DNA of 64,000 nucleotides from Nemertoderma westbladi (lineage: Eukaryota > Animalia > Xenacoelomorpha), in assembly GCA_032718475.1 (NCBI GenBank), contig JAUCBJ010007214.1, forward strand, positions 1 through 64,000, in the 5' to 3' direction. Position numbers and translations under genes: made by a program. Each line of letters begins with the position of its first letter. Position 1 is the stretch's first letter. Shown here piece by piece: positions 1 to 23,890 of the stretch. The notes below the pieces were generated by a model that did not search any database, was not told where the DNA came from, and saw only the letters and a list, made by a program, of their open reading frames with translations.

Positions 1-834
1 ACCCACCAATACATAACCGCGACATCTACCACCCACGGAAGGTAGCACGAACTTATTTCCAATCGCACGTTCAATATGCGAAGCCAGGTGGTTTATAGGA
101 ATATAATCTACGCAGTACTAAATACAGTCGATGCAGTAATGAATGATATTCAAATAATTTATTTAATATACTGTTAATGCCTCTGAAAACTTAGACAATT
201 AAAATACACAGAAATCCCATCAAAAAATAATAAGCATAATATTTTGAGAAATAAACAATTTTGGATATAAGCCTTCTGCAGTGGTAATCTTATTGACTGA
301 CAATCATTAAATGAGATCTGTCTATTACCTGAGACTAAAGAACACAGACTCTATAGTGTAATAGGAGGTAGGGAATGCAGGTTTCAATCTCGTTAGGTCT
401 AGCTGGCAGCCGTGTGGCTAGTTACATACAACCCCCCTCCACTGGCATTCCCAGCAACTGGCTCCCTTACACACACATCCCCCATCTATGTACCAGCCAA
501 CTTGCAAGTTGGCCAATAAATGATCAGTATTTAATGAGAATCCATTTTTTATGCCGTTTTAATTACTTTAGATCAATTAAAGACACAATTATTAAAGCAA
601 ATCACTTGAACTAATTAAAAACTATAATAGAATGGCGTATGTGGATTACATCTGTATAATTTTTAATTATAATTATTTAAATCTTATACTGTAAAACAAT
701 TAATTTCCTTTAAAAGGCAGGTTGAAAATTGTGTTTTCACCGTAATCAACTTAATTAACTAATTAACTGCTATTATCTTAGCTTCTCGAAGGCCACACGG
801 AAATTCTACTTGGAAAATTTCTAAACTTTTGCCA

Positions 835-1006
835 AACAACATGTGTACCAAGTTTGGATAGATTTCATCAAAGATTGGCTGAGTTATTAACGTTTAAAAT
901 TGAACACGACAGAACGACAGAACGACAGAACGACAGAACGACAGAACGACAGGTTGATTAATGGTACCACTACGCTAAGGCTCACTCACTTCGTGGCTCG
1001 CCCCAC
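835..1006. mobile_element. Possible non-autonomous Helentron/HINE (DINE-1-like) remnant
   Basis: TGTGTACCAAGTTT core followed by an 8-bp ACGACAGA microsatellite and a GC-rich GGCTCACTCACTTCGTGGCTCGCCCC end; layout resembles HINE/DINE-1 elements. Boundaries uncertain. Confidence 0.35.
906..952. repeat. (ACGACAGA)n 8-bp tandem repeat, ~6 units
   Basis: Read directly from the sequence. Confidence 0.95.
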
Positions 1007-1463
1007 ATTGCTAAAAATGCACCAATCAGAGTCTTCGACCAACCACGTTCTTCTACAATAATTGGAAAGAATGTTTCCAGTAGATTTTGACACCATCCTG
1101 GTATCAATTGATACATGAGCAATATGGCCACCAACATGTAAAGTCGCCAGCCCTTTTGATGGCCATTCTGGTTCGTAATAATTTTATTTGTATTCTCACA
1201 TGATATAATGGAAGCTTCTCCTTCTGACATCTTATAATCAAACTTCAAATGGTGTTGTATTTTATCGTATACTAATTAATGATATTTACTTTATGGAAAA
1301 TGGTAAAGCCATTGGAATGCTAAATATATTATTAAGTATTCTAGTATAAATTATAAGAAAATCTGCTAAGGAATGGTCTTCTATTTTGATGAAATGTGCA
1401 TCAATACTACCTATCTTTCTACGTATCTTTCTGTTAGTTTATCTGAGATTTATAGTATCCTAT

Positions 1464-2593
1464 TGTTCGCGCTTTTAGACTTTTAGCAGTTTAACCTGCC
1501 AATTTTAGTTGTCCCCTTGTTTATAAATCGACTTTAGCCTATATCAATTACTTAGTGTACTGAAGTTACATCAGCCAAAGCCAGTCTGTGCGCGACCTTT
1601 CACCCACGGTTTTGGGAGACTGGATTCGGATTCCTTGAGAGTTATTGCAGTGTGGACCTACTGTATTATTCTATTGATATTTACGATATAATCTCTGACA
1701 ATATATTTACTTTCGGGGAAATATAAACAGTTCCTGTAGGACGTGGCGCTTTAAGTATAAAAACAGAGTTATGACTTATACTAATCACAACTAGATAGCC
1801 ACAGAGTTTCGTAAATAGCGCATTCTTTAGGAGATGCTTTATTAACCTTCACACTACTTCACACTGCTTCACACTACTTCACACTACTTCGCACTGATCT
1901 GCCGACCGTCACTGAATTTGATCATATATAAGGAGGATCGCAACTGACACATGTAGGGATTATGAAATAGCATTTAATTCACACAAAACAAATATTATGT
2001 AAGTCGCAGTTGCTACCGGTAAACCTGTTCCTCTTACCTCAGTAAGATTGGGGTGTTTATGATTATTTATCGGTATTCTCTAAATATAACAGCAATATCC
2101 ATTAATATAACAACAATTAATAACAGAAGTAAAATAATGCGGTGAACAGTCAGTATGTGTTACTTATGCAGGTAAAAACCGTAATGTTCAGTAGAATGAC
2201 AAGTAAGTAATAATCCAGGTAGGTGAGTTAAGTTAATAGATTTACGTTCTTATAATCAATGACATCTGATGTTTCCTAGGCCAAAGTCTGAAACTTCTAC
2301 ACCGAAGCACAGAAGATTCCGAGCTGGTTCTGATGCTCAGAAAAAAGTAAACAAAAACAGTAATGTATTGCGCGAGTTTCCATAGGACCTTGGTTAGACA
2401 TAAAGGGAAAATCGCTCTGATTGGCTGAATAGGCAGAACAAAGAACTTCCATATCCACAAGAAATCAGCTGACAGATTTCGTCATCTGGGCTCTAATTCC
2501 TTCCCGTCACGCAGTTGGATAAATTTAGGGCTATTTTAGAGTATTCTGCGCATTGTGGAAAAATGACTTGTTATGTCCGCAAAAGCTTTTACA
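1464..2593 (-). repeat. 3' LTR of element A
   Basis: Direct repeat of 20545-21633; starts TGTAAAAGC on the minus strand; contains a 10-bp CTTCACACTA tandem array (~1847-1896), a CCAAT box and AATAAA. Confidence 0.95.
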
Positions 2594-5500
2594 CTGCTCC
2601 CAGAAAATGGGATTTAAGTCTATAAAATATAAAAATCACAGTTTCTAAAATACAAAAATACTCTAAACTATTAGTCCTTCTTACGTGAACGGCCTTTACG
2701 AAGTTTTTGAGGCTAGTAAGAGTCCTTTTCTCTTTGGGGCGAGCCACTTTACTAGGAGGGCTATAACTCCTGGGTGAGGGGTGCAATGCAATTGCATCGG
2801 AAGGTTTAGGATTACGGTCGGTGTATCCGCCGGTCGAGGTACCCGGTTGATCGATATCAACCTCAGTGGAACGAGGTCGAACAACCTTTAGAGCGCGTTT
2901 CAGGACAGCAGCTCTTACTGGTCCCTGATGAGTCATTTGCACGAGAGCGGTAGGTGGACCGTGAGTAGTGAGAAATTTCCTCGGTTTGATGGTTCTTTCC
3001 AACTCGAGTTATTGGGCTCTATATTCATAGCGTCGTCTGTGAACTTCCTGTAGCTCTGGATGCGAGTTTATGAATAAGTCACCATATTCCGGATCTTGAC
3101 GGATGAAGTTGATCAAGTTATAGGAATTAATGTCGTTAGGATTAATATTCCTAAGGTACTTGCGAACAAATTTGGTCGAAATGTTCTCGCCAACACGCTT
3201 CATTACCTCGTAGATAGGGGTACGAGATTTTTGCTCAACGGAAGCAAAGAGATATGGGTGAAACGCATAGACTCCTTCATAGGCACGTCCAGGGTAGTAC
3301 CGATGGCGTGATTTGCAATGGAGATCCGCGTTAGCTTCCCAGGCTCGAATATAACGCAGGGCAACCATTTCGTCTATGCTTTCTAGATCTCGGTTGAAAG
3401 GGCAATCGAAACTTGCGTGTCCTTTAAACTGGCAATGATGACATTGAGTCATAAATTGAGGACAGACTGCGAAGATGTGTAGGTTATTGAGTTTACAATA
3501 CGCACAATAGATCTCCATGGAAGATTGATCTTTAAAGTAGGAGCAGGGTACGCTGGAGTCCACCGGGGTGAAGTGATCTCGCGATGCGCATAATCGGCAA
3601 TGTTTTCTAGAAACATAATTGGCATGCCAATAATCGTATGCGGTGAGACATTGTGGACCTTGATACCATTCCAGGACGTAGTCGTTGTCACTGCTCCTGG
3701 GCACTGTGGGTTGAATCTCCTCGGACTCTAAGCAAATTGGTTCGTCTTCCAATTGCATAGCTGAGGTAGGTGTAGCTGTCTCCTCAAGTGAACCCACTGT
3801 CTGAACTTCCACGATAGAATAACCTGTGGGAATTCGGGGTCTTTGTATAACAGAGGAATGTAAGTTCTGTATACAAACAGCCTTGAAAATGGCGAATCCA
3901 GCACTGTCTAACTTCTCAGCAGCTGAGTCTCTTAGGCTGAGCTTGGTCAGAGCGCGGTCCTTGAACTGACTATCAACGTTACGGAATAGAGTCAGAAAGC
4001 ACCCAAAGCATTCGAATCGGATGAATTTATTGTGTTCATCTAACTTGGCGAGTTTGGTTCCAAGTAACAAGGGATGGGCGTGTATAGTGTGACTGCACAC
4101 ATTGGCTAGCCAACCGGCAAGTGCGGCGTTCTCGAAGATAGTGTATATAGATAATGAGGGACGGAGTGGAACACTCATAAAGCTATAAACGACGCCAGGT
4201 GCGGTTAATGGTCCGTCAAAGTATAATCGAGAATAATGATCTCCATATACTTGTTGATAGCTGACAGGGTTTCCAACTTTGAAATTCCATCCATATTCTT
4301 GGAATTCTTGTCCGATAGAGGTTCATTGTACTTTATTGATGCTGCTGGATGTATTGGCATACATAGTTCGGAAGAAACCTTGGCCTTCTGCCCAGGGAGC
4401 AATCAGCTGAGTGTCTACGGAAGGGTATGGGATATTCTCCATGTTTCTGAAGTCATTTTGGAGATCTCCATAAACAGCTGAGCCGATTTTAAGGATTCTC
4501 TCGTTAAACAGCATCTCAAGCACTGGCTGGGGTAACATCGATCCATCTATACCCATGGCCGGTTTGCGCTCGGTATCGGTAACATAACACTGCACGAGTT
4601 CGAATTGTCCATGTCGGAGATTCTTTTGTATCTCGGTGAGAGTCTCAAAAGAATAATCGATCATGTCGGAACACGCACAACACATGGGTAGAACCAGCTA
4701 GTCCACGTAAGTGTATCATTCGCGTAGTTCCCAGCTCTCCAACTGGAATGCTACCTTCGTTATCGTAAGTGACAACTCCATACATTTCGATAACGTTAAG
4801 AGTCTCGTTCCACTCTTTGGTGGTGTTTTCTATAGTCATCTAGCGCGTAGGTTGACCTCGTGTACCATACGACGGACAAGATCCGCTCGATTGTCCGGAG
4901 GCTCAATGATATACCATCGACACGAGCAGCCTCGATTGGCGGACGTTGTAACATATGAGCGTCAGCGATAAAATCTTTAGATCTTAAGTTGATGTCAACC
5001 GGTTGGGGTTGTACCGTGGCGAAGAGTTTGTCTCCGAAATGGGGAACCATTGAAGGATGAATGATGGTTTTGGAATAGAGATCAGTCATAAGGATTTGAG
5101 CTTCTGGTTGGGCTAAAGCTGCTTCTTCTCTATCATCCATTTTGATGTGTTTCTCCTTGAGCTGATTTTCCTCCGCTTGTCGTTGGAAGTGTTCGTCCAA
5201 AAACTCTTGTAGAGAGTAGGTTCGTCCAAGTTCGATATCTTCTTCGAGATTCTGAATTTCCCGATCGAACTGAGGTAAAGCTAATTCTTTTACCGCTTGG
5301 ACTTGCTGTTGCAATTTACGTTTGTCTAAACAATCGTAAGTTCCTTTTCCGATCTTTTGTCGAATAGCATCTAGCTCGTTTCGTACAATGCTCCCCTCCA
5401 CCTCGGTGACAGGTTGTATCGGGGTTAAACCAGGATGATTATACGGGTTGAACGGCGATATTAGGTGTCCGCGTCCCAATCCGGCTAGGTAGGATGGGCG

Positions 5501-6502
5501 AATATCTAGGGAGCCCACAACCGGTGTGTCACCGACTAATTGTTCGGGTAACACTAGATCTTTAAACAATGAGTACAGTTCAGGAGGATCCGTCATACTA
5601 TTAGGATCAAGAGTCTGAGGTCTCACTAGGGAATGAGGAGGTCTGACCGAGTATTCTGGAACTCTGATCATAGGTTTATTTAAGGATCATTTGAGTCGAG
5701 CGAGCGTTGGTGATACATCGAACAAGTTTCGCTCGAAACCCCTGCAAGTATAGCAAGTAAAACCGTGTTTAGCGCAACGTCTCCGCGGATGTTTATGTCT
5801 TTCCGTTTGTTGGTTGGGTCTAGTGCATTCATCACAATAATACCAAAGACGCACGTCTTGTAGGGGAAACGCGGGTGATCTCTCTCCAGTTTTACAATAT
5901 TCCTCCATCTGTTCGAAGCTATCCGGCACAACAGGTAGTGGTTGATCGGCGGTAAGATACATCATAGTGAAATAGAGTCGTTTGAGTTCTATCATAGGGT
6001 TATGATGTGTACCTTGAGGATATCGAGTTTCTAGATTTTGTTGACTGGCTACATTGAGATATGTTTCTCTTAAGAATTCAAATATTTGTTGAAGTCATTG
6101 CGTTTATCCGGCTCTTCAACGTCTTCTCTTTCAAGTCGATTTCGAATAGAATTTTCGTGTTCGATTCTCAGTTTATCATTCCAACTCCGCTGGGTATGAT
6201 ATTTAAATAGAATCATTTCCCTTTTCGGTGTCTACATCGTCCTTATCGTGTAAATCGATAGGATAACCAGTAGTTAAGAAGTCCATATACGTACCATTAC
6301 GATGCGTATAGCGAGCGGTGAATTTTCTATAGTCCAATTCACGCGTGACCTGTTCCTTTGACATTGGCGGTTCGATATAACGGCCATCGTCCTTTGTAGT
6401 AGGTTAACTAGCGTTGCCGCTTATTAAACTATCAACAAACGCTTGCAATGGTAGGGTATATCGCTCCATGATACCAAGGTCTTCTTCTATTAACTCAGTC
6501 AT
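2589..6502 (-). pseudogene. Accessory ORF of element A: Cys/His finger + DEDDy-type 3'-5' exonuclease + three CCHC knuckles (frameshifted)
   Basis: Candidate ATG at 6502. Consecutive fragments: 5687-5995 (CDEC...HPRRRCAKHGFTCYTC), 4796-5671, 4645-4839 (ExoI-like VTYDNEG), 4323-4685 (ExoII-like LPQPVLEMLFNERILKIGSAVYGDL, VDTQLIA), 3009-4178 (CRLC..H..C, CAYC..H..CPQ, CHHCQFKGH..C) and 2589-3002. The stop at 3009 reads GAA in copy C, so the last two fragments were one frame. Confidence 0.8.
2594..2601 (-). promoter_or_regulatory. Short polypurine tract (GGGAGCAG) of element A
   Basis: Abuts the 3' LTR; the equivalent GGGAGTGG lies at 60326-60333 in element C. Confidence 0.6.
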
Positions 6503-7337
6503 AGCTGCTATATGAGTTTATCGATATTATAATTAATGATATGTAGGCCAGCGGTCGTCGCTGCCCCCCCCCCCCCCCTCAATGCCCCCGGACAGCGCAA
6601 GATCCTCAGCGCTGATTTAATGTCGTCGCTGTGCCTCTCGCCAACGTAGTAGCTACGTAACGACAACAATAACCAGCACGAGTCACTCCACTGTCTGTCC
6701 CAAGGGCTTAGATTTACTGGAGGTTCTTGCTACAGAGGCAGGGTAACTTTCACAACTGCGACTCGCTACTGTAAACACACTTTAGTAGTAACATTCACCT
6801 ATAAATACACAACTTCCACACTCCTGTCACAAATTTTACACATTCGGGCCATTTGTCCATTAGTCAAGTGCCTTCCAGAATGCCACGTTATTATTATGTA
6901 TCCCTGGATACTAGCAGGGTGCTATTTATACAGTATGCTATTCAATGGGGCAAGCTTTCTATTGTTCTTTTAACTCGCTTCTAATTCTAGCGTGGTTGTT
7001 GCTATGGTGACATTATGGAAAGCTAGAAGTAGAATTAGGGTAATTCTCATGCATACAGATCTGGGATGCTATTTAATAGTAATTCTTTAATTGTCAATAT
7101 TCCCCTTTATACATGATTTTATGAATTTTATCGGCTATTGACTATACATTGGAGATTCTCTTACACTAGTATACTTAATACGGTGAATCTCCACTCCCAT
7201 GATCTATTAATTAATGGAATTTTGGGAATGTTATAAATTGTATAAAATGACAATTTATCAAATTCATGAGAGGATATGAATTGAAAATTTATCCTCGTAG
7301 ATTTTATTATTTGATATTAAAATAGACACAATTTTAT

Positions 7338-7702
7338 TCCAGAACATGTCTGGGGACTAGGATCCTTAATTCTAGGAATTTTGTCCTTTTAAGAGTATCG
7401 GTAAGTGCTACGATATCTTAATCGACTAGAATTTTAAAGGATCTAAATTTTAACAGATTTTTGATTTACGGACTCTCCAGAGTTAATTTGTCCACATTTA
7501 CTCTATTTTAACATTTGTTTTAACAGATTTTATAAATATTTATTAAATATTTAATATTTAAGATGGGCACCGATTTAATCCAGAACATGTCTGGGGACGT
7601 TAACCACTGATTCTAGAATTTTGTCTTTCAAGTATATCGGTGGGTGCCGCGATATCTTAATCGACTAGAATTTCAGATGGTCAAAGGGTTTAACAGATTT
7701 AT
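7338..7702. repeat. Two-copy ~125-bp diverged direct repeat in the IN-accessory ORF spacer
   Basis: TCCAGAACATGTCTGGGGAC...CGATATCTTAATCGACTAGAATTT...TTAACAGATTTT at ~7338-7460 and ~7579-7702. Confidence 0.85.
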
Positions 7703-8229
7703 TTTGCATTTTAACGCTACTGTTAAATGGACATCATTCTACCTATATGTATTATTTAATATACGGTATGAGAGCAATATTGCAAGAAGCAATGACAGTG
7801 AGAAGAGGCAAGTCGTTTCCAAGGTATACCCAGAGCTTGGTTTAGCCGAGACACGAGGATCTGAACTTTGCATTCCTAATACTCTACTTACCAATAATAC
7901 TTGAGTATAGTAGGGGCGGTATTGTACTTTTAATAAGTACGGACATTTCATCTTACTGTAGTCACGTATTTATAGTATGATACGGACAGTAAGGAAAGAG
8001 AAAATGAATTATTTCTCGCCATTAATCGAAATATATAATGCTAATTAATTAAGTAATAAACATGAATAATATTGCACCAATCTACTGAATAATCGTTAAA
8101 ATAATATTCTACTAAATAAAATTAAAGAAAATGATTATAATAATAAAATTACGTAATAATACATACATAAATATAAAAATAATAAAAAAAACATAAAATA
8201 ATGTAGTCATACACCCACTCCAGATGCTC

Positions 8230-11200
8230 TTACGTTGGGGAGTCCCTAGATGTTTGTTGGATTAGGGAGGTGGTCGTGGGAAGAGTATCTTGCCTTCCAT
8301 ATTTTCCGGATAGCTCTCGGTCTCTTTCCAGTAAACATAAACGACCAACTGGGCGATTAAGTTGTTGTGTTTCGAATACAATTCCAGGTTTCTTAAAGTT
8401 ACGTCGCATGACGACAAGTTCTACCGATCGCACTAAACCATCATCGGATATATGAGTCTCGATGGTACGACCTGTCTGCCACCTCTGGCAGAGGTGGCAG
8501 ATCTGATTCCACGATAAGGACCATGTCTCCGGCGCTGACGTTTTCTTGCTGCGCAAACCACTTTGTTCGAAGTTGTAGTGTAGGAAGATAATGTTTTTCG
8601 AAATGGTCAGCGAAACGACGGGATAACAACAGCATAAGTTGCCAAGTTTGTCGGCAGTATTCGTCTCCGTCCGTGATTTCCGATTGCGGGAGCATGGCTA
8701 CAGGTTTCTTTAGTAGGAAATGCATGGGTGTTAGCGCTTCTAGGGAGTCGGGACTCGATGAGACTGGCCTAAGCGGTCTCTCGTTAAGATAGGCGGCGAT
8801 TTCTTCCATTAACGTCCGCAAAAGTTCGTCGGTGAGATACGCGCGGCATGGCACTATAAAGTGAAATGCGGTCTTCACGCTCCGTATTAATCTCTCCCAA
8901 CTTCATCCCCACCAAGGGGTGTCGGCGGCGTTGAAGGTCCAGCTAGATGCTGTTACCCTTAGCTGATCGTCCACCTGTCTTTGGTTCCAATCTTTCACGT
9001 AAGCTTTGATCTCATTATTGGTGCCAATGAAGTTCGTTCCTTTGTTGGATCTCATGGTGTTGCTAGTCCCAAAACGAGCAATCTGTCGGTGTAAACTCAG
9101 TATGAAGCTGTTGGTAGATAGATCGTTCACTATATCTAGATGGATCGCTCTACAAGTCATACAGACAAAGATTACACACCATCACTTAACTATAGTCCTA
9201 GCACGATATACTTCAATAGGGCCAAATAAATCCATACCAGTATTAGTAAAGGGTGGTTCATAGAAGCTTACTCTTTCCCTAGGTAATTCTGCCTCTCGCT
9301 CTTTCCTACAGGGTATACAGTTCCTAAGAACTTGGTTCAGAGCTCTACGGGGATTATTGAAATAATAGCGAGTTCGAATTTCGCTAAGAACTCGTTCTCT
9401 ACCAGCATGGTAAAGCCTACTGTGAACATCTACAATCATCTTGATTTGTATTTCAAGATTTCTAATGAGTATGGGAAACTTATCGGAATCTTCATAGCAT
9501 TGCAGGAGTCTCAGTATCTGCTTATTGGTATCCTCATGCTCTTGGTAACTGATCTTCTCCATCAGAAAACTTTCAGACACTTTATAGGCGGGAAGGCTTT
9601 AATAGCATGGACCTTTTTGGATATTATTGGAGCGATATCACTAGTGATCTTCGTCCTGGAATAGTGATGATAGAAACATCTTTTAAGATACACAACGGCA
9701 TTGCAAAGCCGATTAAAGGAGCTATAATGATTTATTGCTCTCTGCAGGAGAGGGGAGAGTCCTTGCGAGACATCTGGTGTTCCAGATTTCCAGTCTCTTT
9801 CCCTGATTTCAATAACAGATTTGTTCGTGGCGGGGAATTTAGATCCACAGCGTCGTCCCCGGAGATGTGTAGTACAGACAGATCTATCACGGGTTTAAAT
9901 AACTTTGATTTACTCGTCCGGGTTTTAGGTTTGACTTTCTCCGCTCCCTTGGCTAGTCCAATCTCTGCCGTGGTGGGATGAGGAGGCCATTCATCCTCTT
10001 CTTTACTTAGGAAGTCGGGTCTACCTAACCAGTCTGGAATATCTATCAGTTCTTGAGGAGTTGCTCCTCTGGAGGTGATGTTGGCTGGATTGATCGTCCC
10101 AGGGCAATGTCTCCATTTATCTACATTAGAGCGACTAAGTATAATGGCTACTCTGTTGGTAACGAAGACGCTAAATTGACAGACTTCATTTGTTATATAC
10201 TCCAGAACGAGTAAAGCATCGGTCCAATAGACAGTTTTCTCCAGTGGATAGTCGATCTGTTCTGTTACATTCTGGCCGATGGCTGTAGAGTATAGAGCCG
10301 CCTTTAACTCCGCTCGAGGAACTCGTAATTTGTTGTTTATCAAGGCCTTAGAGGTGACCAAGGCAACTTTAATTCCATCCGGAGTTTCAACCCTCAGGTA
10401 GGCTACTGTACCTATTCCCATATCGCTGGCGTCTCCAAACACATGGAGTTGATAGGAATACGTAGGGAGAACGTGACCAAAATATGAACGGGAAATCTTA
10501 AAGTTCTCTATGGATGGTAGAGAATCTTCCCATTTCATCCACTTCTTTAGCAGTTCTCCCTTAAGTGGATCATCCCACGAGTGGTTTTCGAGCCACATTT
10601 GTTGCACTAAGCTCCGAGCAACTAATATAACTGGGCTAATAAATCCCAATGGATCGAAATAAGTGCTCAGGATACTTAGACAAATCCGTTTAGTTCTAAC
10701 TGGATTATCTCACTGTTTTAACTGGAAAAACAAGATATCTCTCTCCGTGTCCCATTTTAAGCCAAGTGTTTTGGTTTCCGGAAGATCGTCCTTGATGAGG
10801 TCCAAATCTTTAATACCTCGGTCTTCTACCGGGATCGATTCCAGAAACTCAAGGGAGTTACTAGTGAATTTGGTTGGCCGAAATCCACCGCGTTGCAAGC
10901 ACTCTACCGTTCCCTTGGCAACATCAATGGCTTCTTCCACCAATAAGAGGGACTTTAAATTGTCGTCCATATATATATCCCGATTGATGTTGTCGATAAC
11001 CGCTTTAGAGAAGGCGTCTCGGTTGTCATCGGCAGTGGTACACACTACTGAACAAGCGTTCGAGGGGCTCGAGATGATCCCCAAAGCCTGGATGGTCATC
11101 CAGTACACCACCGGTTTTTGGTTGAGGTCTCTCCTTCAGGCCACCACAGAAATCGTAGGCTGTCTCGATCCCTTTCCAGCGCCTTGACTTGTAAGTACAT

Positions 11201-11755
11201 GCCTTCTATGTCCGAAGCGAATGCGATAGAATATTGCCGCAGTCTTAATAATATTCCCAACAAGGATTGGAGTAAGTTATGTCCCAGCAACAGTTCTGAG
11301 TTCAGGGATTGACCCATGTAAAGGGCGGAGCTGTCAAACACTACCTGGACTTCGTTGGGTTTACCGGGCGTGGGAACGTAATGATGTGTTAGATAATACG
11401 TTCTTTCCGTTATGGGTGTTTCTTCCGGAACTCACTCCGCGTATCCTTTATCAATGAATTTCTTCAGTTGGGTTTTATACATTTCCCTGGCTTGAACGTT
11501 GGCCGTAAGACGCCGATGTAGTTGCGCCATTCTCTTTTCCGCTAAAGGTCGGTTATTTATAAAGCTGGGTTCTCGCCATCGGAACGGAAGACCAATCTCA
11601 TAGCAACCTTCGTCCTTCAGATAACGTGTAGTCGTTTCCTGAATCTGCTTGGCTCTCTCCTCCTCGACAGACAAGGCTTTGTCGTAGGAATTAGGCTCCA
11701 CGGCTTCTTGAGTAAAGAATCGTACGGCGTGTTCATCGCAGATTTTGTTATTGTA
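8230..11755 (-). pseudogene. pol: pol of element A (RT, RNase H, integrase), fragmented
   Basis: RT ASDIEGMYLQV and YMDD; Pao RNase H HVFGDAS, PRAELKAA, WTDA, NPA.ITSRG; integrase H..LYHAG...CIPC, GMDLFGP, GTNF, PWWG. Multiple frameshifts. Confidence 0.95.
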
Positions 11756-14700
11756 TCAATCTATCACTTCATTTAATTCGTCATTATATGTGTATTTTCC
11801 GCCATGTTGATTGATAAGATGGCATAGGTTGGCTTGGTTTAACCAAGTCTGGTTCTCGGTGAGGAGATCGATTGTATTTTCCTCATCATACAGCTGATTG
11901 ATGTCGTCGTTGTCTGAGGAGTATGGTGTTCCCTCAGTTGTGGTTTCTCCCTCAATGTTTTCTTCTTCCCATTCACTCACCTGATGTATTCTCTCATTAG
12001 GGAGTCTTTCCATTAGGGTTCTACGGGAAGGTCCAGTGAAGTACCAACCTACTCTCGTTCTTTCCGCGTACGTTTGCAATGGTTGCGGTCGAGCAGGCCG
12101 TTTTTCCAATGTCTCAAGCGCTTCATGCGCATTTTGGCCGATTAATATCTGCACCCCTGTGTAATCGGTGTTGAATCTAGGTATATCATGTTGCTGGGTA
12201 AAATGGTCTTCATCCCAGTTGTAAGGTTCCACTTGGCTAGTAGCAAAGTTCTTTATAGCCACCATTTTGACCGACCTTACACTATGTTCTCCTAGTTCAT
12301 CCTGGGGAGTGGACAACGCACCCACATAGTAATCTGTAGCTACTGTGGATTTCCAAACCTGCATAAATCCGGAAAGATTCAACTTAGTTTGGAACTTGGG
12401 TTGTCCAGCAAAGATGTCTTCGGCTAGTTCTTTGTCAATGAAGATGCCTGTGCTGCCGGAGTCAAGGAGGGTGTTTACTATGAGGCGCTTCCCTAGCCCA
12501 TGAACCCTCAGTTGCACCACAGGAAATTCTCGGATACCGACGGAGGAAGTTGGCTCTTTCCAAGATGGTTGTCGGTCCGGAATAGTCAGTTGAGGATTTT
12601 CCGCTTCCGATTCAGTCTCGTACGTAAGTGCTCGATACACTGCGGTGTTTATCATATAACAGGATTCATTTTCGTCGGAGAATTTGTCCGTGTAGAATCC
12701 TTCCATATCAGAACTGTGGTCAGTGTCGTTCACATCACTGAATTGGACATGTAGTTCGGGCTCACTTACCTGACTCGTGCGGGTTCTGTCAAATTCGGTG
12801 TGCAGCAAGATGTGATGTTTCGCGCCGCACTTAGTACACCTCGCGTCTGAGTAGCAGGTTCGTCGTTGATGTCCTCGTCTGAGGCAATTATAACACAACC
12901 GCTTATCCCACATGACATCACGTCTATCCTTCAGGGATTTCTTCAAGAATTCATCACACCCACTCAAGCGATGTGGCCCGTCGCACAATACACATTTGGG
13001 TTTGATGTTACTTACTTTAACCTGTGTTGTGTTGTGCACACTGGTTCTTTCCTCAGGCTTTCTTCCATGAATTATCTTAGGAGACATAGGAGGAGTGGTT
13101 ACCTGTTCTCTCCTGTCACTGGTTCGAGACTTAGATTTACTTACGTCTTTCCTCGTTTTATTGACATAATAAGATCTTTCGGTGTCCTTACCGCTGTTCT
13201 CCTTGTATGAGGTTTGGCTTTCGCCATAATCCGTAAAACACACTGGTGTTATCTTTCTCCTAGAAACGGGTTTTTCACTCACCTTACTTTTCAGTGTCTT
13301 CTCTCTGGACTGCTTTAGGAGCTGTAATCTTACCTCTCCATTTAAGAACGACATGAGATCAGCCATGGTAGGGTCTCTTTGTTGCTGGTCCATCATATAG
13401 AGAACCTTTTTGTCCCAACGAGTACCTACTCCACCCTTTGGCAAAGTAGATGCTACGGCTCCAACAACCATAGAACTCTGGTATTCTTGAGACTTACCTA
13501 ACCAATCTAGCTGTATCTCCTGAATCTCATTGGAAAACTCTATAATCCCGCTGCTAAGAAACTTTCGGGGCGCTACTAATTTCGCATATAAATACCTAGC
13601 TAAGTTAGTCCTATTACCATACCTGATGTTTAGTGTATCCCAAACTTGTCTTAATCCATCTGGATGTCCAATAAACTTTAACGCCATTAACTTAGGAGGT
13701 CCTTCCAAGCACTCGATGAGGAATCTAAGTTTCTCTCCGTTAGATAGTACAGAGCTCTGTATGTTATCTTTATAATATTCATTAAAAGGTAACCATTTCA
13801 TCTCATCTCCATTGAACTTGACGACCTCTCCCACCTTTACCGCTTGACGGGCTTTGGTTCTAGCCATTTGACGTGTAAAACTTTCTTGAGCCATCGTATT
13901 ATTTAATATCGAGTTATCGGTATATAAATTTCTCGGATTATGATCAGATCGGTATGGGATATCATTATCAACGGATTTATAATTACCCTTAATAGGATTG
14001 ACTATAGGAGTTTCTACTTCACTAGCAGTATAGATGCGTGTAGGCTCCACACCTTGCGCATGAAATACTTCAGACCTAACGGGTTGACACATTATTACAG
14101 GGGGTGGTGGTATACCCATTCGTATATTTACTAATTTATCGCGCTCTAAAGTGATACTTTGTTGTACTTCTTGCAACTCTAACCTACTCTCTCTCACTGT
14201 TCCCTTTAACTGCTGAACAGTCCCTTCCAATTCTCGGACCTGCTGAGAAGACCTTTGTTTATGGTCTTCCAGCTGCCCGAGCAGCCGATTCATCCCCCGT
14301 TGTCCCTCATCCACCCACTCCACCGCTGAAGCGGGAGCCGCCAACATGGTAGTGGGGTGACGCGTAGGGACGACGGGAGACAAGTCATTTATGTCTTGCT
14401 CGGCGTCCAGGACTGGATGTGGTTCAGGGGCTTGTCTACTGGGCACAGGTAGTTTAGTACTGTGCAAAGGGAATTTAGAGTTAGGTTCGTGAAGTATAGG
14501 GGTCTCTATCACCGGAGTGGCTTCAATGACAGGCCTAATTATTTCAGGCTCATCTACTATAGTAGGGAGTCTGTCTACTCTAATAATTCGGTCTATAGGC
14601 TCCTGATTACTTACATCTACATTAGCTAGTTGCCTTCTCACAGCAGGAGGTAAATTAGGTAACTTCTGCCGATGTGGCGTTCTTCTACATCCGCTTGAAT

Positions 14701-15802
14701 GAGATTTATTACCTCCACCCTCGGGATCCGTTGTATCACCCTCATCGGAGGAGGTAAATACCTGTCTTCTGGGAGTTGATCGACTCAGTAGTTGCATCTG
14801 AGTAGCCGCTCTTTGTTTAGTTAAGTAATCTTGTTTCGCCTGAAGGTTCTCCAGCTCGAGTTGGTCTGTCGCTGCAGATGCTCTCTGTTCTGCTTCTGCT
14901 ACTGCCGCTGCCGCTACCGCCTTTCTTTTGGCCTCTGCTACTGCCACCTTTCTTTCAGCTTCTTCCGCTGCCGCTGCCGCTGCCGCTGCCGCCTCCACTG
15001 TTAACTTTCGGTCTTCTATTTGCCTTTTCTTTATTTTTACTTCTTGGTCCATTACGATGAGGATGCTTTCATCAAATTTAGCCTGCTCCGCAGCTAATAT
15101 TTCCGCATCTAAAGAGTCCAACACAAATTTGGCTCCCTCACTATTGGGGTGAAGTCCAGCTAGCCTTCTCCTTAGCTCTTTGTCATCTATAAATCGTTGA
15201 TAGTCCGACAGATAGATGTCAATAGCATCCTTCTTCTGAGGTTTCTCGGATGTAGCTTCGCCTTCCACCTGAGAAAAGGTAGCATCTGTTGATTCTCCGT
15301 GGGTCATGCGCTCAGTTAGCTGAGCTTTCCATTGTGTCGTTCCCTGGACTTTAAGACTCACCCGTTGGAACCAAGTCTTTACGGCCACTTGCAACGACGT
15401 GTCTTGGCTTCTCTTTGAGGCTTCCTCAAAGGCAGAAAGGATTAGTCTGATCCGTAAAATTCGTTCTCGCACTTGATAAAGCAGCTCTCCCTGCTCTTGA
15501 GGTCCTTGACGTTGTTGAAATAGGTGTTCTTCTAATCGCTCCAAAGAGCTGAAGAATCCCTGGACATATCCTGCTGCTGACCTCTTCCATACAGCTGGAT
15601 CGCGGGTTTCCCTTACTATTCCCATCCTGTATAAGTCTTCCCAGGCAGCTTCCGATAAGTTAAATGGGAGTCCGGGTCTGGGGAAGTTCCATTGCGTCTC
15701 GACAATAGACCTCAGTTCCTCCATCGTGTATCCCGCATAACTGTCCCTGGTCGATCGCTTATTTCTTGTCCAATCGGCTTGATGTTCCTCCACAGCAATC
15801 AA
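11756..15802 (-). CDS. gag: Gag (coiled coil, DUF1759-like capsid region, three Cys/His knuckles) + aspartic protease, element A
   Basis: 1348-aa ORF; KFNGDEMKWLPF...EKLRFLIECLEGPP; CVLCDGPH..C, CYNCLRRGH..C, CTKCGAKHH; protease LLDSGS. True start uncertain. Confidence 0.92.
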   Translation of the reverse strand: MIAVEEHQADWTRNKRSTRDSYAGYTMEELRSIVETQWNFPRPGLPFNLSEAAWEDLYRMGIVRETRDPAVWKRSAAGYVQGFFSSLERLEEHLFQQRQGPQEQGELLYQVRERILRIRLILSAFEEASKRSQDTSLQVAVKTWFQRVSLKVQGTTQWKAQLTERMTHGESTDATFSQVEGEATSEKPQKKDAIDIYLSDYQRFIDDKELRRRLAGLHPNSEGAKFVLDSLDAEILAAEQAKFDESILIVMDQEVKIKKRQIEDRKLTVEAAAAAAAAAEEAERKVAVAEAKRKAVAAAAVAEAEQRASAATDQLELENLQAKQDYLTKQRAATQMQLLSRSTPRRQVFTSSDEGDTTDPEGGGNKSHSSGCRRTPHRQKLPNLPPAVRRQLANVDVSNQEPIDRIIRVDRLPTIVDEPEIIRPVIEATPVIETPILHEPNSKFPLHSTKLPVPSRQAPEPHPVLDAEQDINDLSPVVPTRHPTTMLAAPASAVEWVDEGQRGMNRLLGQLEDHKQRSSQQVRELEGTVQQLKGTVRESRLELQEVQQSITLERDKLVNIRMGIPPPPVIMCQPVRSEVFHAQGVEPTRIYTASEVETPIVNPIKGNYKSVDNDIPYRSDHNPRNLYTDNSILNNTMAQESFTRQMARTKARQAVKVGEVVKFNGDEMKWLPFNEYYKDNIQSSVLSNGEKLRFLIECLEGPPKLMALKFIGHPDGLRQVWDTLNIRYGNRTNLARYLYAKLVAPRKFLSSGIIEFSNEIQEIQLDWLGKSQEYQSSMVVGAVASTLPKGGVGTRWDKKVLYMMDQQQRDPTMADLMSFLNGEVRLQLLKQSREKTLKSKVSEKPVSRRKITPVCFTDYGESQTSYKENSGKDTERSYYVNKTRKDVSKSKSRTSDRREQVTTPPMSPKIIHGRKPEERTSVHNTTQVKVSNIKPKCVLCDGPHRLSGCDEFLKKSLKDRRDVMWDKRLCYNCLRRGHQRRTCYSDARCTKCGAKHHILLHTEFDRTRTSQVSEPELHVQFSDVNDTDHSSDMEGFYTDKFSDENESCYMINTAVYRALTYETESEAENPQLTIPDRQPSWKEPTSSVGIREFPVVQLRVHGLGKRLIVNTLLDSGSTGIFIDKELAEDIFAGQPKFQTKLNLSGFMQVWKSTVATDYYVGALSTPQDELGEHSVRSVKMVAIKNFATSQVEPYNWDEDHFTQQHDIPRFNTDYTGVQILIGQNAHEALETLEKRPARPQPLQTYAERTRVGWYFTGPSRRTLMERLPNERIHQVSEWEEENIEGETTTEGTPYSSDNDDINQLYDEENTIDLLTENQTWLNQANLCHLINQHGGKYTYNDELNEVID

Positions 15803-16091
15803 TACTCTAGTGAGTACGGCCCAGGAAGAATTAGAAGTAGATCTGGATAAACCGCTTCTGCCATCCTTGCTCCGATCTTGGGTGTCAACTCTTCAGTGTC
15901 TGAACTACTAGAGTTATCGTGCCGTTGAGAAATAAGTTCTCGGCTCGGGTGCTGCTGCTGTTTAACAGCCGCTTCTTGGTCTCGCTTAGCTTGAGCCCTA
16001 GTGCCTATAATAGACCTATGGTGCTTTACTAGCCTAGGGTCTGATACTACTACTGTAGGGATGACCTTTCTTACAGTAGGAGGGGACTTGT

Positions 16092-18076
16092 ATGTTATCT
16101 TTATAATATTCATTAAAAGGTAACCATTTCATCTCATCTCCATTGAACTTGACGACCTCTCCCACCTTTACCGCTTGACGGGCTTTGGTTCTAGCCATTT
16201 GATGTGTAAAACTTTCTTGAGCCATCGTATTATTTAATATCGAGTTATCGGTATATAAATTTCTCGGATTATGATCAGATCGGTATGGGATATCATTATC
16301 AACGGATTTATAATTACCCTTAATAGGGTTGACTATAGGAGTTTCTACTTCACTAGCAGTATAGATGCGTGTAGGCTCCACACCTTGCGCATGAAATACT
16401 TCAGACCTAACGGGTTGACACATTATTACAGGGGGTGGTGGTATACCCATTCGTATATTTACTAATTTATCGCGCTCTAAAGCGATACTTTGTTGTACTT
16501 CTTGCAACTCTAACCTACTCTCTCTCACTGTTCCCTTTAACTGCTGAACAGTCCCTTCCAATTCTCAGACCTGCTGAAAAGACCTTTGATTATGGTCTTC
16601 CAGCTGCCCGAACAGCCGATTCATCCCCCGTTGTCCCTCGTCCACCCACTCCACCGCTGAAGCGGGAGCCGCCAACATGGTAGTGGGGTGACGCATAGGG
16701 ACGATGGGAGACAAGTCATTTATGTCTTGCTCGGCGTCCAGGACTGGATGTGGTTCAGGGGCTTGTCTACTGGGCACAGGTAGTTTAGTACTGTGCAAAG
16801 GGAATTTAGAATTAGGTTCGGGAAGTACAGGGGTCTCTATCACCGGAGTGGCTTCAATGACAGGCCTAATTATTTCAGGCTCATCTACTATAGTAGGGAG
16901 TCTGTCTACTCTAATAATTCGGTCTATAGGCTCCTGATTACTTACATCTACATTAGCTAGTTGCCTTCTCACCGCAGGAGGTAAATTAGGTAACTTCTGC
17001 CGGTGTGGCGTTCTTCTACGTCCGCTTGAATGAGATTTATTACCTCCACCCTTGGGATCCGTTGTATCACCCTCATCGGAAGAGGTAAATACCTGTCTTC
17101 TGGGAGTTGATCGACTCAGTAGTTGCATCTGAGTAGCAGCTCTTTGTTTAGTTAAGTAATCTTGTTTCGCCTGAAGGTTCTCTAGCTCGAGTTGGTCTGT
17201 CGCTTCAGATGCTCTCCGTTCTGCTTCTGCTACTGCCGCTGCCGCTACCGCCTTTCTTTCGGCCTCTGCTACTGCCGCCTTTCTTTCAGCTTCTTCCGCT
17301 GCCGCTGCCGCTGCCGCTGCCGCTGCCGCCTCCACTGCTAACTTTCGGTCTTCTATTTGCCTTTTCTTTATTTTTTCTTCTTGGTCCATTACGATGAGGA
17401 TGCTTTCATCAAATTTAGCCTGCTCCGCAGCTAATATTTCCGCATCTAAAGAGTCCAACACAAATTTGGCTCCCTCACTATTGGGGTGAAGTCCAGCTAG
17501 CCTTCTCCTTAGCTCTTTGTCACCTATAAATCGTTGATAGTCCGACAGATAGATGTCAATAGCATCCTTCTTCTGAGGTTTCTCGGATGTAGCTTCGCCT
17601 TCCACCTGAGAAAAGGTAGCGTCTGTTGATTCTCCGTGGGTCATGCGCTCAGTTAGCTGAACTTTCCATTGTGTCGTTCCCTGGACTTTAAGACTCACCT
17701 GTTGGAACCAAGTCTTTACGGTACTTGGTTTCTCTTTGAGGCTTCCTCAAAGGCTGAAAGGATTAGTCTGATCCGTAAAATTCGTTCTCGCACTTGATAA
17801 AGCAGCTCTCCCTGCTCTTGAGGTCCTTGACGTTGTTGAAATAGGTGTTCTTCTAATCGCTCCAAAGAGCTGAAGAATCCCTGGACATATCCTACTGCCG
17901 ACCTCTTCCATACAGCTGGATCGCGGGTGTCCCTTACTATTCCCATCCTGTATAAGTCTTCCCAGGCAGCTTCCGATAAGTTGATCGGGAGTCCGGGTCT
18001 GGGGAAGTTCCATTGCGTCTCGACAATAGACCTCAGTTCCTCCATTGTGTATCCTGCATAACTGTCCCTGGTCGAT
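16092..18076 (-). pseudogene. gag: Second, partial tandem copy of gag in element A
   Basis: ORFs 17716-18138, 16565-17698 and 16034-16561 repeat the N-terminal half of the 11756-15802 Gag; junctions at ~16092 and ~18076. Confidence 0.92.
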
Positions 18077-20544: not shown

Positions 20545-21633
20545 TTAGTTGGCCTCTTGTTTATAAATCGACTTTAGCCTATATCAATTACTTAGTGTAC
20601 TGAAGTTACATCAGCCGAAGCCAGTCTGTGCGCGACCTTTCACCCACGGTTTTGGGAGACTGGATTCGGATTCCTTGAGAGTTATTGCAGTGTAGACCTA
20701 CTGTATTATTCGATTGATATTTACGATATAATCTCTGACAATATATTTACTTTCGGGGAAATATTAACAGTTCCTTTAGGACGTGGCGCTTTAAGTATAA
20801 AAACAGAGTTATGACTTATACTAATCACAACTAGATGGCCACTAAGTTTCGTAATTAGGTTTAGGAGATGCTTTATTAACCTTCACACTACTTCACACTG
20901 CTTCACACTACTTCACACTACTTCGCACTGATCTGCCGACCCTCACTGAATTTGATCATATATAAGGTGGATCGCAACTGACACATGTAGGGATTATGAA
21001 ATAGCATTTAATTCACACAAAACCAATATTATGTAAGTTGCAGTTGCTACCGGTAAACCTGTTCCTCTTACCTCAGTAATCAATAAGATTGGGGGGTTTA
21101 TGATTATTTATCAGTATTCTCCAAATATAACAGCAATATCCATTAATATAACAACAATTAATAACAGAAGTAAAATAATGCGGTGAACAGTCAGTATGTG
21201 TTACTTATGCAGGTAAAAACCGTAATGTTCAGTAGAATGACAAGTAAGTAATAATCCAGGTAGGTGAGTTAAGTTAATAGATTTACGTTCTTATAATCAG
21301 GGCCATCTGATGTTTCCTAGGCCAAAGTCTGAAACTTCTACACCGAAGCACAGAATATTCCGAGCCGGTTCTGATGCTCAGAAAAAAGTAAACAAAGACT
21401 GTAATGCATTGCGCGAGTTTCCATAGGCCTCTGTTAGACATAAAGGGAAAATCGCTCTGATTGGCTGAATAGGCAGAACAAAGAGGTTCCACGTCCACAA
21501 GAAATCAGCTGACAGATTTCGTCATCTGGGCTCTAATTCCTTCCCGTCACGCAGTTGGATAAATTTAGGGCTATTTTAGAGTATTCTGCGCATTGCGGAA
21601 AAATTACTTGTTATGTCCGCAAAAGCTTTTACA
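20545..21633 (-). repeat. 5' LTR of element A (last ~40 bp of U5 and PBS region deleted)
   Basis: Matches 1505-2593; the sequence matching 1464-1504 is absent, and the leader resumes at the equivalent of C ~45474. Confidence 0.92.
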
Positions 21634-21934
21634 CCTATCCTAGCTTTGAATTTCATGGCTGAGCCCACCCCTTGTTTGTTGCATTTAAAGCATGATACTA
21701 AATACACAAGATTGTTGCGTCAAATGTCATGTTACATCTAATTAATTGTACACTGTTTATTTTATCCCTAGTATTTTATAGGTATATAGGTTTATTTATA
21801 GGTAACATCGCCTTACATAGTACACATGTAGATCTTTTGCAGTTTGTTGCTTCCCCTATTGTGTACAGTTTATTGTAATGATTCTCTTTATATTTTGAAG
21901 GCGCTAGTATGATGTGTAAAGTTGGTGTAAACGC

Positions 21935-23214: not shown

Positions 23215-23225
23215 ATAATAGATTT
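23215..23225 (+). promoter_or_regulatory. Non-tRNA primer-binding site of C (ATAATAGATTT), complementary to LTR 22380-22390
   Basis: Directly follows the LTR CA; no TGG; perfect 11-nt complement AAATCTATTAT inside the LTR. Function inferred. Confidence 0.65.
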
Positions 23226-23329: not shown

Positions 23330-23890
23330 TGTGACGGGATCTAAGAAGGATCCCGGTTTATCCGCGGTTATTGTATTTACGCGTCCCCACCGTGTGTGTG
23401 TGTGAAAAGAGTCTGGGAATTCTGACGTTATTGATCCTCCGATATGTATAATGCGATAGATAGTATAAAATGGATATAGTATAAAATGGTTGAAACCCAA
23501 ATGATGTAATACAGTAGTGTACAGGTAAATGGTGGTAGGCGAGGACGGTAATAGAAGTCACCGCTCTACCCTAGCTAACCGACTAACATAAATGAGATAA
23601 CTGAACCGAATACTGATACCTAATAATATATATTGCACGGTTTGGCCGTTGTTACAGTACCTAGCCGGTGCCTTCCTCCCATTGGCTAATATCCCTGTTG
23701 GCACCCTTTGGAGTGTTTCCCCTCACTCCTGCTATTCTCTCTCGGTCAGGGGTATGGCCCCTGACCCCTATTGTGTGTTTCTCCTTCCCACTCTGTTGGG
23801 GTGGCACGAGGTTGGGTAATTAAGCTCGTGCTCCCAATATTGCTTAACGGCTTACTTTGTGGGGTGTTAGCGGAATTGAATAAGCTAACA
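23330..23890 (-). repeat. 3' LTR of element B
   Basis: Near-identical to 44701-45259. Confidence 0.96.

Follow-up and report, generated by a model that had tools for sequence, protein, structure and literature searches.

What does a BEL/Pao retrotransposon carry in the position where some of its relatives have an envelope-like gene? The question is raised by a 64,000-nucleotide stretch of the genome of Nemertoderma westbladi (contig JAUCBJ010007214.1; hereafter the window), in which such an element has an extra gene between its integrase and its 3' LTR. A sequence-only reading of this DNA had proposed that the gene encodes a DEDDy 3'-5' exonuclease followed by zinc knuckles. Our analysis supports that interpretation: at a probability of roughly 0.68, we hold that profile comparison matches the product to 3'-5' exonuclease domains of the DEDDy type, that it continues into CCHC knuckles, and that it would likely hold single-stranded RNA or cDNA and trim 3' ends.

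The extra gene and the element that carries it

Element A spans about 20 kb (1505-21634), and both the element and its extra gene are encoded on the minus strand of the window. Its 3' LTR (1505-2594) and 5' LTR (20545-21634) are direct repeats of each other, 95.5% identical over 1097 aligned columns. Pfam matches and the list of open reading frames place gag-pol, in several frames, at 8230-15892, including a 1378-codon ORF (15892-11756) that contains a DUF1759 gag domain (E 1.1e-7). Peptidase_A17 (E 1.6e-37), Integrase_H2C2 (E 1e-8) and DUF5641 (E 8.5e-9) follow in this order between the LTRs, and element A is thus a BEL/Pao LTR retrotransposon. The integrase/DUF5641 region ends at about 8230 and is followed by an AT-rich spacer (6095-8229) in which a long open frame is absent. 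Inside the spacer lies a 240-nt tandem pair (7317-7446 and 7558-7685).

The window holds two further elements. Element B, a copy of A's family, consists of an internal part with a 3' LTR remnant on the plus strand (45330-60726) and a 5' LTR at 22016-23217. Element C (23330-45259, minus strand) is a nested BEL/Pao sister, recognized by its gag-pol (44540-36124) and by its LTRs (23330-23890 and 44701-45259), which are 97.5% identical. On the same strand it has an intact extra ORF of 438 codons (24617-25933), a short relative of the A gene as judged from alignments to A and to P0004, a protein described below. A (CTAA)n tract occupies 27055-36021, between the integrase of element C and this ORF.

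Does the extra region belong to element A, or is it foreign, a captured fragment of a host gene or an unrelated insertion in this copy? Element B lacks the regions matching A 3086-4838 and 4914-7686, and two word-index protein searches gave no close relatives of the extra-ORF protein, as a foreign origin would suggest. Both gap flanks are in register in B, however, which points to deletions in B, and terminal repeats flanking the region were not found. The absence from other full-length copies that the sequence-only reading had raised as a threat to its claim is not borne out. In four DNA runs of the organism, the stretch 2604-6600 shows depth in 30, 30, 30 and 29 of 30 bins, with 17095, 13092, 6314 and 237 matched contigs of graded likeness; three of the runs thus cover every bin with thousands of contigs. 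The diverged relative in element C has the same place and strand. Another BEL/Pao element, on a metagenome contig unrelated to element A (L002), also shows pol (Peptidase_A17, E 2.1e-44, with DUF5641 and RVT_1) and then, 1.7 kb beyond it, a 929-codon post-integrase ORF with the same knuckle module. A foreign origin is therefore highly improbable.

The position would also suit an envelope-like gene, and such third ORFs are named for BEL/Pao elements in the available text of PMC13524379, with F-like glycoproteins in Roo and chuvirus-like ones in mosquitoes. They share their position with the A gene and differ from it in their domains. None of the extra-ORF pieces has a membrane segment (19-residue hydropathy means peak at 1.22, which is not membrane-like), so the extra gene is not an envelope gene; N-glycosylation sequons number 0 to 2 per piece, and domains of a nucleic-acid type are present instead. 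We regard an envelope as barely credible here.

Reading frames and damage in copy A

The sequence-only reading had described a single frameshifted ORF running from 6502 to 2589. The segment 6502-6095 contains 8 in-frame stops and the frame is open only from 6094. The reading falls into three pieces in three frames (6094-4796, 4839-4648 and 4697-2592). An ATG at 4837-4839 lies directly behind the stop with which the second frame opens, so that the first of the supposed frameshifts may mark a boundary between two overlapping ORFs. In the MAFFT alignment, the first residues from this ATG fall on the first RNase D strand, and the exonuclease-like domain is N-terminal in P0004, in a second related protein, P0002, and in the element C ORF. 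We conclude that the exonuclease-knuckle gene is probably a separate ORF of roughly 720 codons, from the ATG at 4839 to about 2671, which would overlap the end of the upstream ORF and whose expression would rely on a subgenomic or re-initiated message. The upstream ORF itself (4796-6094; 432 codons, interrupted by a single in-frame stop, 5687-5689) encodes a Cys/His cluster (5836-5744) and a charged helical stretch, and has no family match in Pfam.

Within the exonuclease-like domain, a one-base frame change lies at 4648-4697. Among the other copies listed (12/14 rows, contigs of the DNA runs) no indel appears at this place. The break may be common to many copies, which may have spread with the gene already broken. 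The third-frame piece has an in-frame stop at 4323-4325, also within the domain, and another at 3009-3011. At position 4325 nearly all other covering contigs have a different letter (15 contigs in DNA run X1), and at the place matching 3009-3011 copy B has a sense codon. B stays open as far as a stop matching A 2673-2671, which makes 2671-3008 a probable C-terminal extension and means that the end proposed at 2589 falls inside the LTR; compared with B, A has a further frame change near 2700-2712. Because of the two stops and the two frame changes, copy A is unable to make the exonuclease-knuckle protein.

An exonuclease-like domain joined to zinc knuckles

The motifs quoted in the sequence-only reading, including the Cys/His cluster of the upstream ORF, are all present where it had placed them. 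The second-frame piece contains the ExoI-like YDNEG (4753-4767), whose D and E, aligned by hhalign, fall in columns invariant over 32 rows; ExoI D-x-E is thus retained in the alignment with PF01612 (DNA_pol_A_exo1) domains. The ExoII-like segment LP..VLEML..ILKIGSAVYGD (4464-4535) ends in K-I-G-S-A-V-Y-G-D, and in the profile alignment its acidic residue, D at 4466-4464, lies opposite the invariant D83 of the reference. VDTQ (4407-4418) is aligned by hhalign with the reference DTQ. The ExoIII-like segment, PLRPSLSIYTIFEN (4128-4169), has Y-x3-E-N replacing Y-x3-D and aligns with the Y-x3-E-N of P0004, which in turn aligns with the reference W..RPL...Q..Y-x3-D, although the hhalign extension there is of low confidence. 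Both proteins thus have E where the reference D153 is invariant in 30/30 rows. All four acidic positions are nevertheless carboxylates in A and P0004, and the tyrosine is kept too.

Relatives outside the window come from an exhaustive HMMER search of 1.84 billion representatives, which returned 3 matches with E <= 1e-3; of these, P0004 (E 4.5e-4) spans the exonuclease part, whereas the match to P0002 (E 1.1e-5) lies in the knuckle part. In BLASTP, the window read-through and P0004 are 29% identical over 112 residues (E 5e-11). A, P0004, P0002 and the element C ORF have a common build of an exonuclease-like domain, two to three knuckles and a conserved tail. The element C ORF has ExoI D-x-E, an ExoII K-V-G-S-x4-D, a DMQ motif, two knuckles and the tail, and its alignment lacks an ExoIII segment; it matches P0004 at 34% over 160 residues (E 2e-16) and 24% over 117 residues (E 1e-6), and the ExoI piece of A at 29% over 51 residues (E 0.004). 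P0002 has lost both the ExoI E and the ExoII D.

We compared the family with 30 proteobacterial PF01612 domains, all of which match the Pfam model at E <= 2.0e-40. The three-member family matched them in hhalign with a probability of 90.2% (E 1.5e-6, 97 columns), and the four-member family, with element C added, with 94.8% (E 5e-8, 102 columns). The ExoI D-x-E, the ExoII D and the DTQ of the family land on invariant reference columns, and motif order and spacing are common to the four members. The observed score was 46.5, whereas reversed rows gave 12 and 100 column shuffles gave 21.0 at best; the window read-through alone scored 33.9 with a PF01612 profile, and 100 residue shuffles of it never exceeded 22.5. 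On its own, the 64-residue ExoI piece gave no significant match to the PF01612 profile (P 0.11), with a language-model atlas score of 0.82. In the same atlas, the 124-residue ExoII piece adjoins PF01612 clusters (score 0.93, 180/256 features, 27/30 hits); its best cluster is commonest in Rotifera, a lead towards kinship with the rotifer ORFs discussed below. At the level of sequence profiles, these comparisons show that the ExoI-ExoII-DTQ part is homologous to PF01612 domains.

PF01612 itself, the Pfam model to which the sequence-only reading had pointed, gave no match to the window pieces, the read-through or P0001 at the gathering cut-off of 23.6 bits, and P0004 reached 11.9 bits (E 0.2), under that cut-off. 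No exonuclease was found in the PDB by sequence or profile search. Folding from the three rows of the family itself failed (mean pLDDT 30). With the 30 PF01612 rows added to the alignment, residues 1-299 of P0004 folded with a pLDDT of 72.8, and Foldseek matched that model to Egalitarian, EXD2, RNase D, EXD1, RRP6 and Nibbler (59 matches with E <= 1e-3). This last comparison is circular, because the DnaQ-like shape of the model is largely inherited from the added rows.

Downstream of the domain lie three Cys-His units (3402-3599), recognized by their spacing and aligned with the knuckles of P0004, P0002, L002 and L004. The sequence-only reading had counted three CCHC knuckles. Two of these are canonical, at 3506-3462 (C-x2-C-x5-H-x4-C) and at 3443-3402 (C-x2-C-x4-H-x4-C, the only exact unit of the three); the third, at 3599-3543, is a variant with a long last spacer (C-x2-C-x4-H-x9-C). 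Pfam zf-CCHC_3 matched the element A knuckles at E 0.024 and 14.9 bits, under its cut-off of 27. The P0004 knuckle pair matches HIV-1 nucleocapsid with E 1.1e-4, which supports the knuckles as genuine. They resemble retroviral and retrotransposon nucleocapsid knuckles in spacing (C-x2-C-x4-H-x4-C) but lie outside gag; the gag of element A has two knuckles of its own (12994 and 12895), which are otherwise unlike those of the extra ORF. Behind the knuckles, a tail of the form W-E-x-x-A ... S-R-x-R ... G-V-Y-x-F (3261-3341) is common to A, P0004, P0002 and element C. L002 and L004 keep the knuckle-tail module only, so knuckles and tail are the conserved core.

Possible activity and known relatives

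The gene probably specifies an accessory factor for the binding or trimming of nucleic acid. The knuckles would hold single-stranded RNA or cDNA and the exonuclease-like domain is predicted to trim 3' ends, with the D, E, D, Y and E forming the putative active site; the substrate may come from the element itself, as RNA or cDNA, or be small RNA of the host.

Might the exonuclease motifs instead match by chance, in a fast-evolving ORF whose fold is a different one? The missing Pfam and PDB sequence matches and the failed fold from the family's own rows would fit, but hhalign probabilities of 90-95% with far lower shuffle and reversal controls, the motif order and spacing that four members have in common and the atlas lead to PF01612 clusters make chance very unlikely. 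A weightier alternative is that the domain derives from an exonuclease but is now a catalytically dead module that binds RNA, as in Egalitarian, EXD1 or Maelstrom, and that the protein acts as an adaptor or a second nucleic-acid-binding protein for packaging, localisation or shielding of element RNA. The E for the invariant D of ExoIII in A and P0004, the missing ExoIII segment in the intact ORF of element C and the two acidic residues lost in P0002 all fit this idea and indicate that nuclease activity is not conserved across the family; the knuckle-tail module standing alone in L002 and L004 also fits. Egalitarian and EXD1 are among the top structural neighbours of the P0004 model, but that ranking is biased by the added PF01612 rows. 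Against a dead module, A and P0004 have carboxylates at all four positions plus the tyrosine, a full set that inactive relatives usually do not keep. We consider a dead module possible but doubtful, and continue to favour a DEDDy-type domain that would bind and trim.

How does the A gene compare with known systems? The ExoI D-x-E, ExoII D and DTQ of its family align by profile with those of cellular DEDDy proteins (RNase D, WRN, EXD2, Mut-7, Nibbler, RRP6, EXD1 and Egalitarian), but the match is under the Pfam threshold, ExoIII in A has E for D, and the family has an insert of roughly 50 residues between ExoI and ExoII and another before ExoIII. Unlike the cellular domains, that of A is retrotransposon-encoded and fused to CCHC knuckles. 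Closer in setting are the DEDDy ORF3s published for Juno/Vesta LTR retrotransposons and Athena/Terminon Penelope-like elements of bdelloid rotifers (Rodriguez, Kenefick and Arkhipova 2017, PMC5408684; Arkhipova and Yushenova 2019, PMC6431247). As the available text of PMC5408684 describes them, Juno/Vesta have an RNase D-like DEDDy exonuclease ORF behind pol, membrane or coiled-coil envelope features are absent, one catalytic acid is altered (DEDD to DEED), and some members have a Cys-His-Cys motif; the same text raises for the rotifer ORFs the idea of a dead module, which lends that alternative some support here. Compared by description, the two differ in their hosts, Juno/Vesta LTR and Penelope-like elements in rotifers and BEL/Pao here, and in that the domain of A is followed by two to three retrovirus-type CCHC knuckles and a conserved tail.

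The sequence-only reading knew of no earlier account of this cargo in BEL/Pao, and our literature search likewise found no published description of a DEDDy ORF3 in these elements. Since similar cargo is already described for rotifer LTR elements of another class in the available text of PMC5408684, it is new only for BEL/Pao; in the literature covered, rotifer elements outside this class were the sole ones described with such cargo. A broader and rather unlikely proposal is that BEL/Pao elements encode their own Nibbler/Mut-7/Egalitarian-like factor, in which nucleocapsid-type knuckles tie a DEDDy domain to RNA. This factor would either trim host piRNAs or siRNAs or steer element RNA into the germ line, and its gene would be one of a stock of exonuclease genes that LTR, BEL/Pao and Penelope-like retroelements exchange across animal phyla. 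If the trimming of host piRNAs or siRNAs were true, the factor would be a transposon-borne suppressor of silencing.

The window and its extra gene

Three nested BEL/Pao elements together occupy nearly the whole 64 kb. Element A, on the minus strand, is bounded by LTRs at 1505-2594 and 20545-21634 (95.5% identity across 1097 columns). In descending coordinates, its Pfam matches on that strand are the DUF1759 gag family (E 1.1e-7), inside a 1378-codon ORF that comes first, then Peptidase_A17 (E 1.6e-37), Integrase_H2C2 (E 1e-8) and, last of pol and ending near 8230, DUF5641 (E 8.5e-9). Element B, a plus-strand copy of the same family, has its 5' LTR at 22016-23217, separated from A by about 400 bases, its internal part at 45330-60300 and a 3' LTR remnant at 60324-60726. 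Directly past B's 5' LTR, on the opposite (minus) strand, sits the inserted element C, with LTRs at 23330-23890 and 44701-45259 (97.5% identical over 561 bases) and matches to DUF1759, aspartyl protease, Peptidase_A17, Integrase_H2C2 and DUF5641.

About 690 residues upstream of DUF1759 in the 1378-codon ORF of A (13800-15892, minus strand) have no Pfam match, an N-terminal gag extension that is unusually long for BEL/Pao. The gag-side region also carries a 2.3-kb tandem duplication (13758-15702 and 16089-18023, 97-99% identical), at which, as B's matches suggest, the family varies. The spacer that separates integrase from the extra ORFs contains a 240-nt tandem pair (7317-7446 and 7558-7685, 74-80% identical). 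Element C has, between its integrase and its extra ORF, a satellite of 42/88 nt (26371-26922) that precedes a (CTAA)n array at 27055-36021 with 2241.8 copies, 100% matches and 0 indels; an unbroken 9-kb array of this kind would be unusual for a genuine microsatellite and may have arisen in assembly.

The sequence-only reading had placed a single frameshifted ORF, encoding a DEDDy exonuclease and zinc knuckles, after the integrase of element A. Every motif it quoted can be found on the window's minus strand: a Cys/His cluster (5836-5744), the ExoI-like YDNEG (4767-4753), an ExoII-like stretch ending in K-I-G-S-A-V-Y-G-D (4535-4464), VDTQ (4418-4407) and the ExoIII-like segment PLRPSLSIYTIFEN (4169-4128). 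Two of the three CCHC knuckles it counted are canonical (3506-3462 and 3443-3402), but the third (3599-3543) is a variant Cys-His unit only. The limits it assigned had to be changed: a single ORF from ATG 6502 is rejected because eight in-frame stops interrupt 6502-6095, the frame being open from 6094, and the proposed end at 2589 falls within the LTR.

Three minus-strand frames are read. The first (6094-4796) has one stop, at 5687-5689; the second (4839-4648) starts with ATG 4839 directly after its opening stop; and the third runs from 4697 onward, with stops at 4323-4325 and 3009-3011. At the place of this last stop B has a sense codon, and it stays open for about 110 codons more, to a stop corresponding to A 2673-2671; the frame of A shifts relative to B near 2700-2712. 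Over the roughly 100 codons past 3009, A and B differ by five synonymous and seven non-synonymous codons, too few to show constraint.

Rather than one ORF, element A probably contained two overlapping ORFs, 6094-4796 followed by an exonuclease-knuckle ORF from 4839 to about 2671. This reading follows from the position of ATG 4839 after a stop and from the N-terminal placement of the exonuclease-like domain in three relatives: P0004 (648 residues), P0002 (633 residues, with a stop in contig L001 that closes its frame 15 codons ahead of the first Met) and the extra ORF of element C. It also draws on a MAFFT alignment of the first residues of A's exonuclease ORF to the first strand of RNase D domains, and on the upstream frame, which remains in register in copy B up to A 4845. 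A single frameshifted ORF may be what existed instead. The upstream ORF (6094-4796) comprises the Cys/His cluster and a charged helical stretch; it has no family match in Pfam and no match to P0002, P0004 or the ORFs of metagenome contigs L002 and L004. The gene is dead in copy A: the exonuclease-knuckle ORF is broken by two stops and two frame changes, and the upstream ORF by one stop.

Comparison with DEDDy exonucleases

A Pfam search of the gene pieces and read-through gave no match to DNA_pol_A_exo1 (PF01612), the family to which the gene had been likened, and scans of seven pieces, four read-throughs and the protein P0001 gave no exonuclease family. A phmmer search of PDB sequences with the read-through returned four weak matches, all unrelated, and a PDB profile search with A1 returned none. 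Word-index protein searches found no relative among 6741 candidates of near length or 3345 longer proteins; the same search with P0004 found itself alone among 7989 candidates, and viral contigs searched with element C's ORF gave no match. An exhaustive HMMER search at E <= 1e-3 yielded three proteins: P0004, matching the exonuclease part, P0002, matching the knuckle part, and P0003, an acidic repeat protein that was dropped as spurious and kept out of every alignment. The window read-through is 29% identical to P0004 over 112 residues (E 5e-11), and P0004 itself has a sub-threshold match to PF01612 (11.9 bits, E 0.2).

For profile comparison, the reference was a set of 30 bona fide PF01612 domains, each with E <= 2.0e-40, from the loci of best matches in 61 proteobacterial genomes, 61/61 of which have a match over the cut-off. 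With hhalign, the three-member family alignment matched this reference at a probability of 90.2% (E 1.5e-6, 97 columns), rising to 94.8% (E 5e-8, 102 columns) when element C's ORF was added; the reference motifs coincide with the family's ExoI D-x-E, ExoII D and DTQ. The three-member score of 46.5 compares with 12 for reversed rows and 21.0 for the best of 100 column shuffles, and the window read-through alone scored 33.9 (P 1.3e-4) against 22.5 for the best of 100 residue shuffles. The N-terminus of P0002 alone reached a probability of 1.4%. With controls far below the observed scores, these data support the reading of the gene as a DEDDy exonuclease with knuckles, within the corrected limits.

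In a language-model atlas, the 124-residue ExoII piece falls among PF01612 clusters (score 0.93, 180/256 features, 27/30 hits). The 64-residue ExoI piece alone is not significant against the PF01612 profile and does no better there than the other two frames (P 0.11), and its best atlas score, 0.82, is to no family; it matches the intact ORF of element C (29% over 51 residues, E 0.004), and its D and E are located in invariant columns. ExoIII aligns to the reference at low confidence only, with Y-x3-E in A and P0004 whereas 30/30 references have D.

From the three family rows alone, fold prediction reached a mean pLDDT of 30, too low to be usable; P0004 1-299 with 30 PF01612 rows added to the alignment gave pLDDT 72.8 and pTM 0.71, a result that is no independent proof, since the fold came in with the alignment. 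At E <= 1e-3, a Foldseek search with this model returned 59 PDB matches, headed by Egalitarian (1.8e-6) and EXD2 (3.9e-6), with T. brucei RNase D, EXD1, RRP6, NrnC and Nibbler as next neighbours. The P0004 sequence is thus compatible with the DnaQ-like fold of the PF01612 rows.

Copies and relatives of the gene

The gene stretch is not absent from other copies. B lacks A 4914-7686 and 3086-4838, and these gaps are deletions in B, since both flanks are retained in register. Alignment of contigs from four DNA runs of the organism to 2604-6600 gave 17095, 13092, 6314 and 237 contigs, with depth in 30, 30, 30 and 29 of 30 bins. Run X1 has 2703 contigs that are at least 99% alike, 5386 at 95-99%, 6824 at 90-95% and 2182 below 90%. 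Together with a relative in element C and the lack of repeats flanking the region in A, the deletions in B and the contig coverage lead us to reject a nested foreign insertion. At the first bases of stops 4323-4325 and 5687-5689 nearly all covering contigs have another letter, so these stops are private to copy A. At the frame change 4648-4697, no insertion or deletion occurs among the rows listed (12 of 14), and therefore this break may be common in the family. Summed contig depth within 2604-6600 is highest in the bin 6222-6355, and at 6223, 36, 29 and 15 contigs from three runs break off into common unlike sequence; the spacer may derive partly from a more abundant repeat or subfamily.

Between its integrase and 3' LTR, element C has an intact extra ORF of 438 codons (25933-24617, minus, the same strand as C). 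It has ExoI D-x-E, an ExoII-like K-V-G-S-x4-D, DMQ, two knuckles and the tail, with no ExoIII segment in the ORF, and it matches P0004 at 34% over 160 residues (E 2e-16) and 24% over 117 residues (E 1e-6). In contig L002, a BEL/Pao pol (Peptidase_A17, E 2.1e-44) is followed 1.7 kb on by a 929-codon ORF (5423-8212) with the knuckle-tail module and without a visible exonuclease domain; L004 has a similar ORF of 904 codons (615-3329; 25% identity to that of L002 over 778 residues, E 6e-54). These ORFs, which have just the knuckle-tail module in common with the window's gene, are a second, exonuclease-less form of the BEL/Pao third ORF.

Possible function and significance

By sequence comparison, the family combines an exonuclease-derived N-terminal domain with nucleocapsid-type knuckles and a conserved tail, and its genes follow pol in BEL/Pao elements. 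An envelope was rejected (highest 19-residue hydropathy mean, 1.22), as was an origin from element A's own gag knuckles; the knuckles of P0004 match HIV-1 NC at E 1.1e-4. The knuckles would hold single-stranded nucleic acid while the putative DEDDy site (D, E, D, Y, E in A and P0004) would trim 3' ends of element RNA or cDNA or, alternatively, host small RNAs. The chief alternative is an exonuclease-derived RNA-binding adaptor that is inactive. This reading is strengthened by the losses in element C and P0002 and by the knuckle-tail module being the only part common to all members.

RNase D-like DEDDy ORF3s are described for the bdelloid Juno and Vesta LTR retrotransposons and Athena Penelope-like elements; one of the catalytic acids is altered, and Vesta2 and Vesta5 carry a Cys-His-Cys motif (Rodriguez, Kenefick and Arkhipova 2017, PMC5408684). 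The authors called DEDDy exonucleases in retrotransposons previously unreported, and a paper on Terminons repeats the observation (PMC6431247). By title and abstract, no exonuclease ORF in BEL/Pao appears among the literature matches listed, all of them from outside subscription journals, Repbase entries and supplements. The words 'nuclease' and 'ORF3' occur 0 times in PMC3118150 and 'exonuclease' 0 times in PMC13524379; the matches joining DNA_pol_A_exo1 with retrotransposons are superfamily surveys, and the one joining Belpaoviridae with exonucleases is, by its listing, a piRNA review. The window's build, an exonuclease-like domain with nucleocapsid-type knuckles and a tail, is distinct from that of the rotifer elements and is the first BEL/Pao case in the searches made, with putative nuclease activity.

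To our knowledge, retrotransposon accessory genes other than envelope are few. The cellular relatives Nibbler, Mut-7, EXD1 and Egalitarian work in small-RNA pathways and in the transport of RNA, by which transposon RNA is policed or carried, and this makes the function worth an experiment; P0004 and element C's ORF are natural intact proteins suited to testing activity. The build is seen in a genomic family of high copy number, in a nested sister element and in environmental contigs, a spread that suggests repeated or ancient recruitment of the DEDDy class by retroelements.
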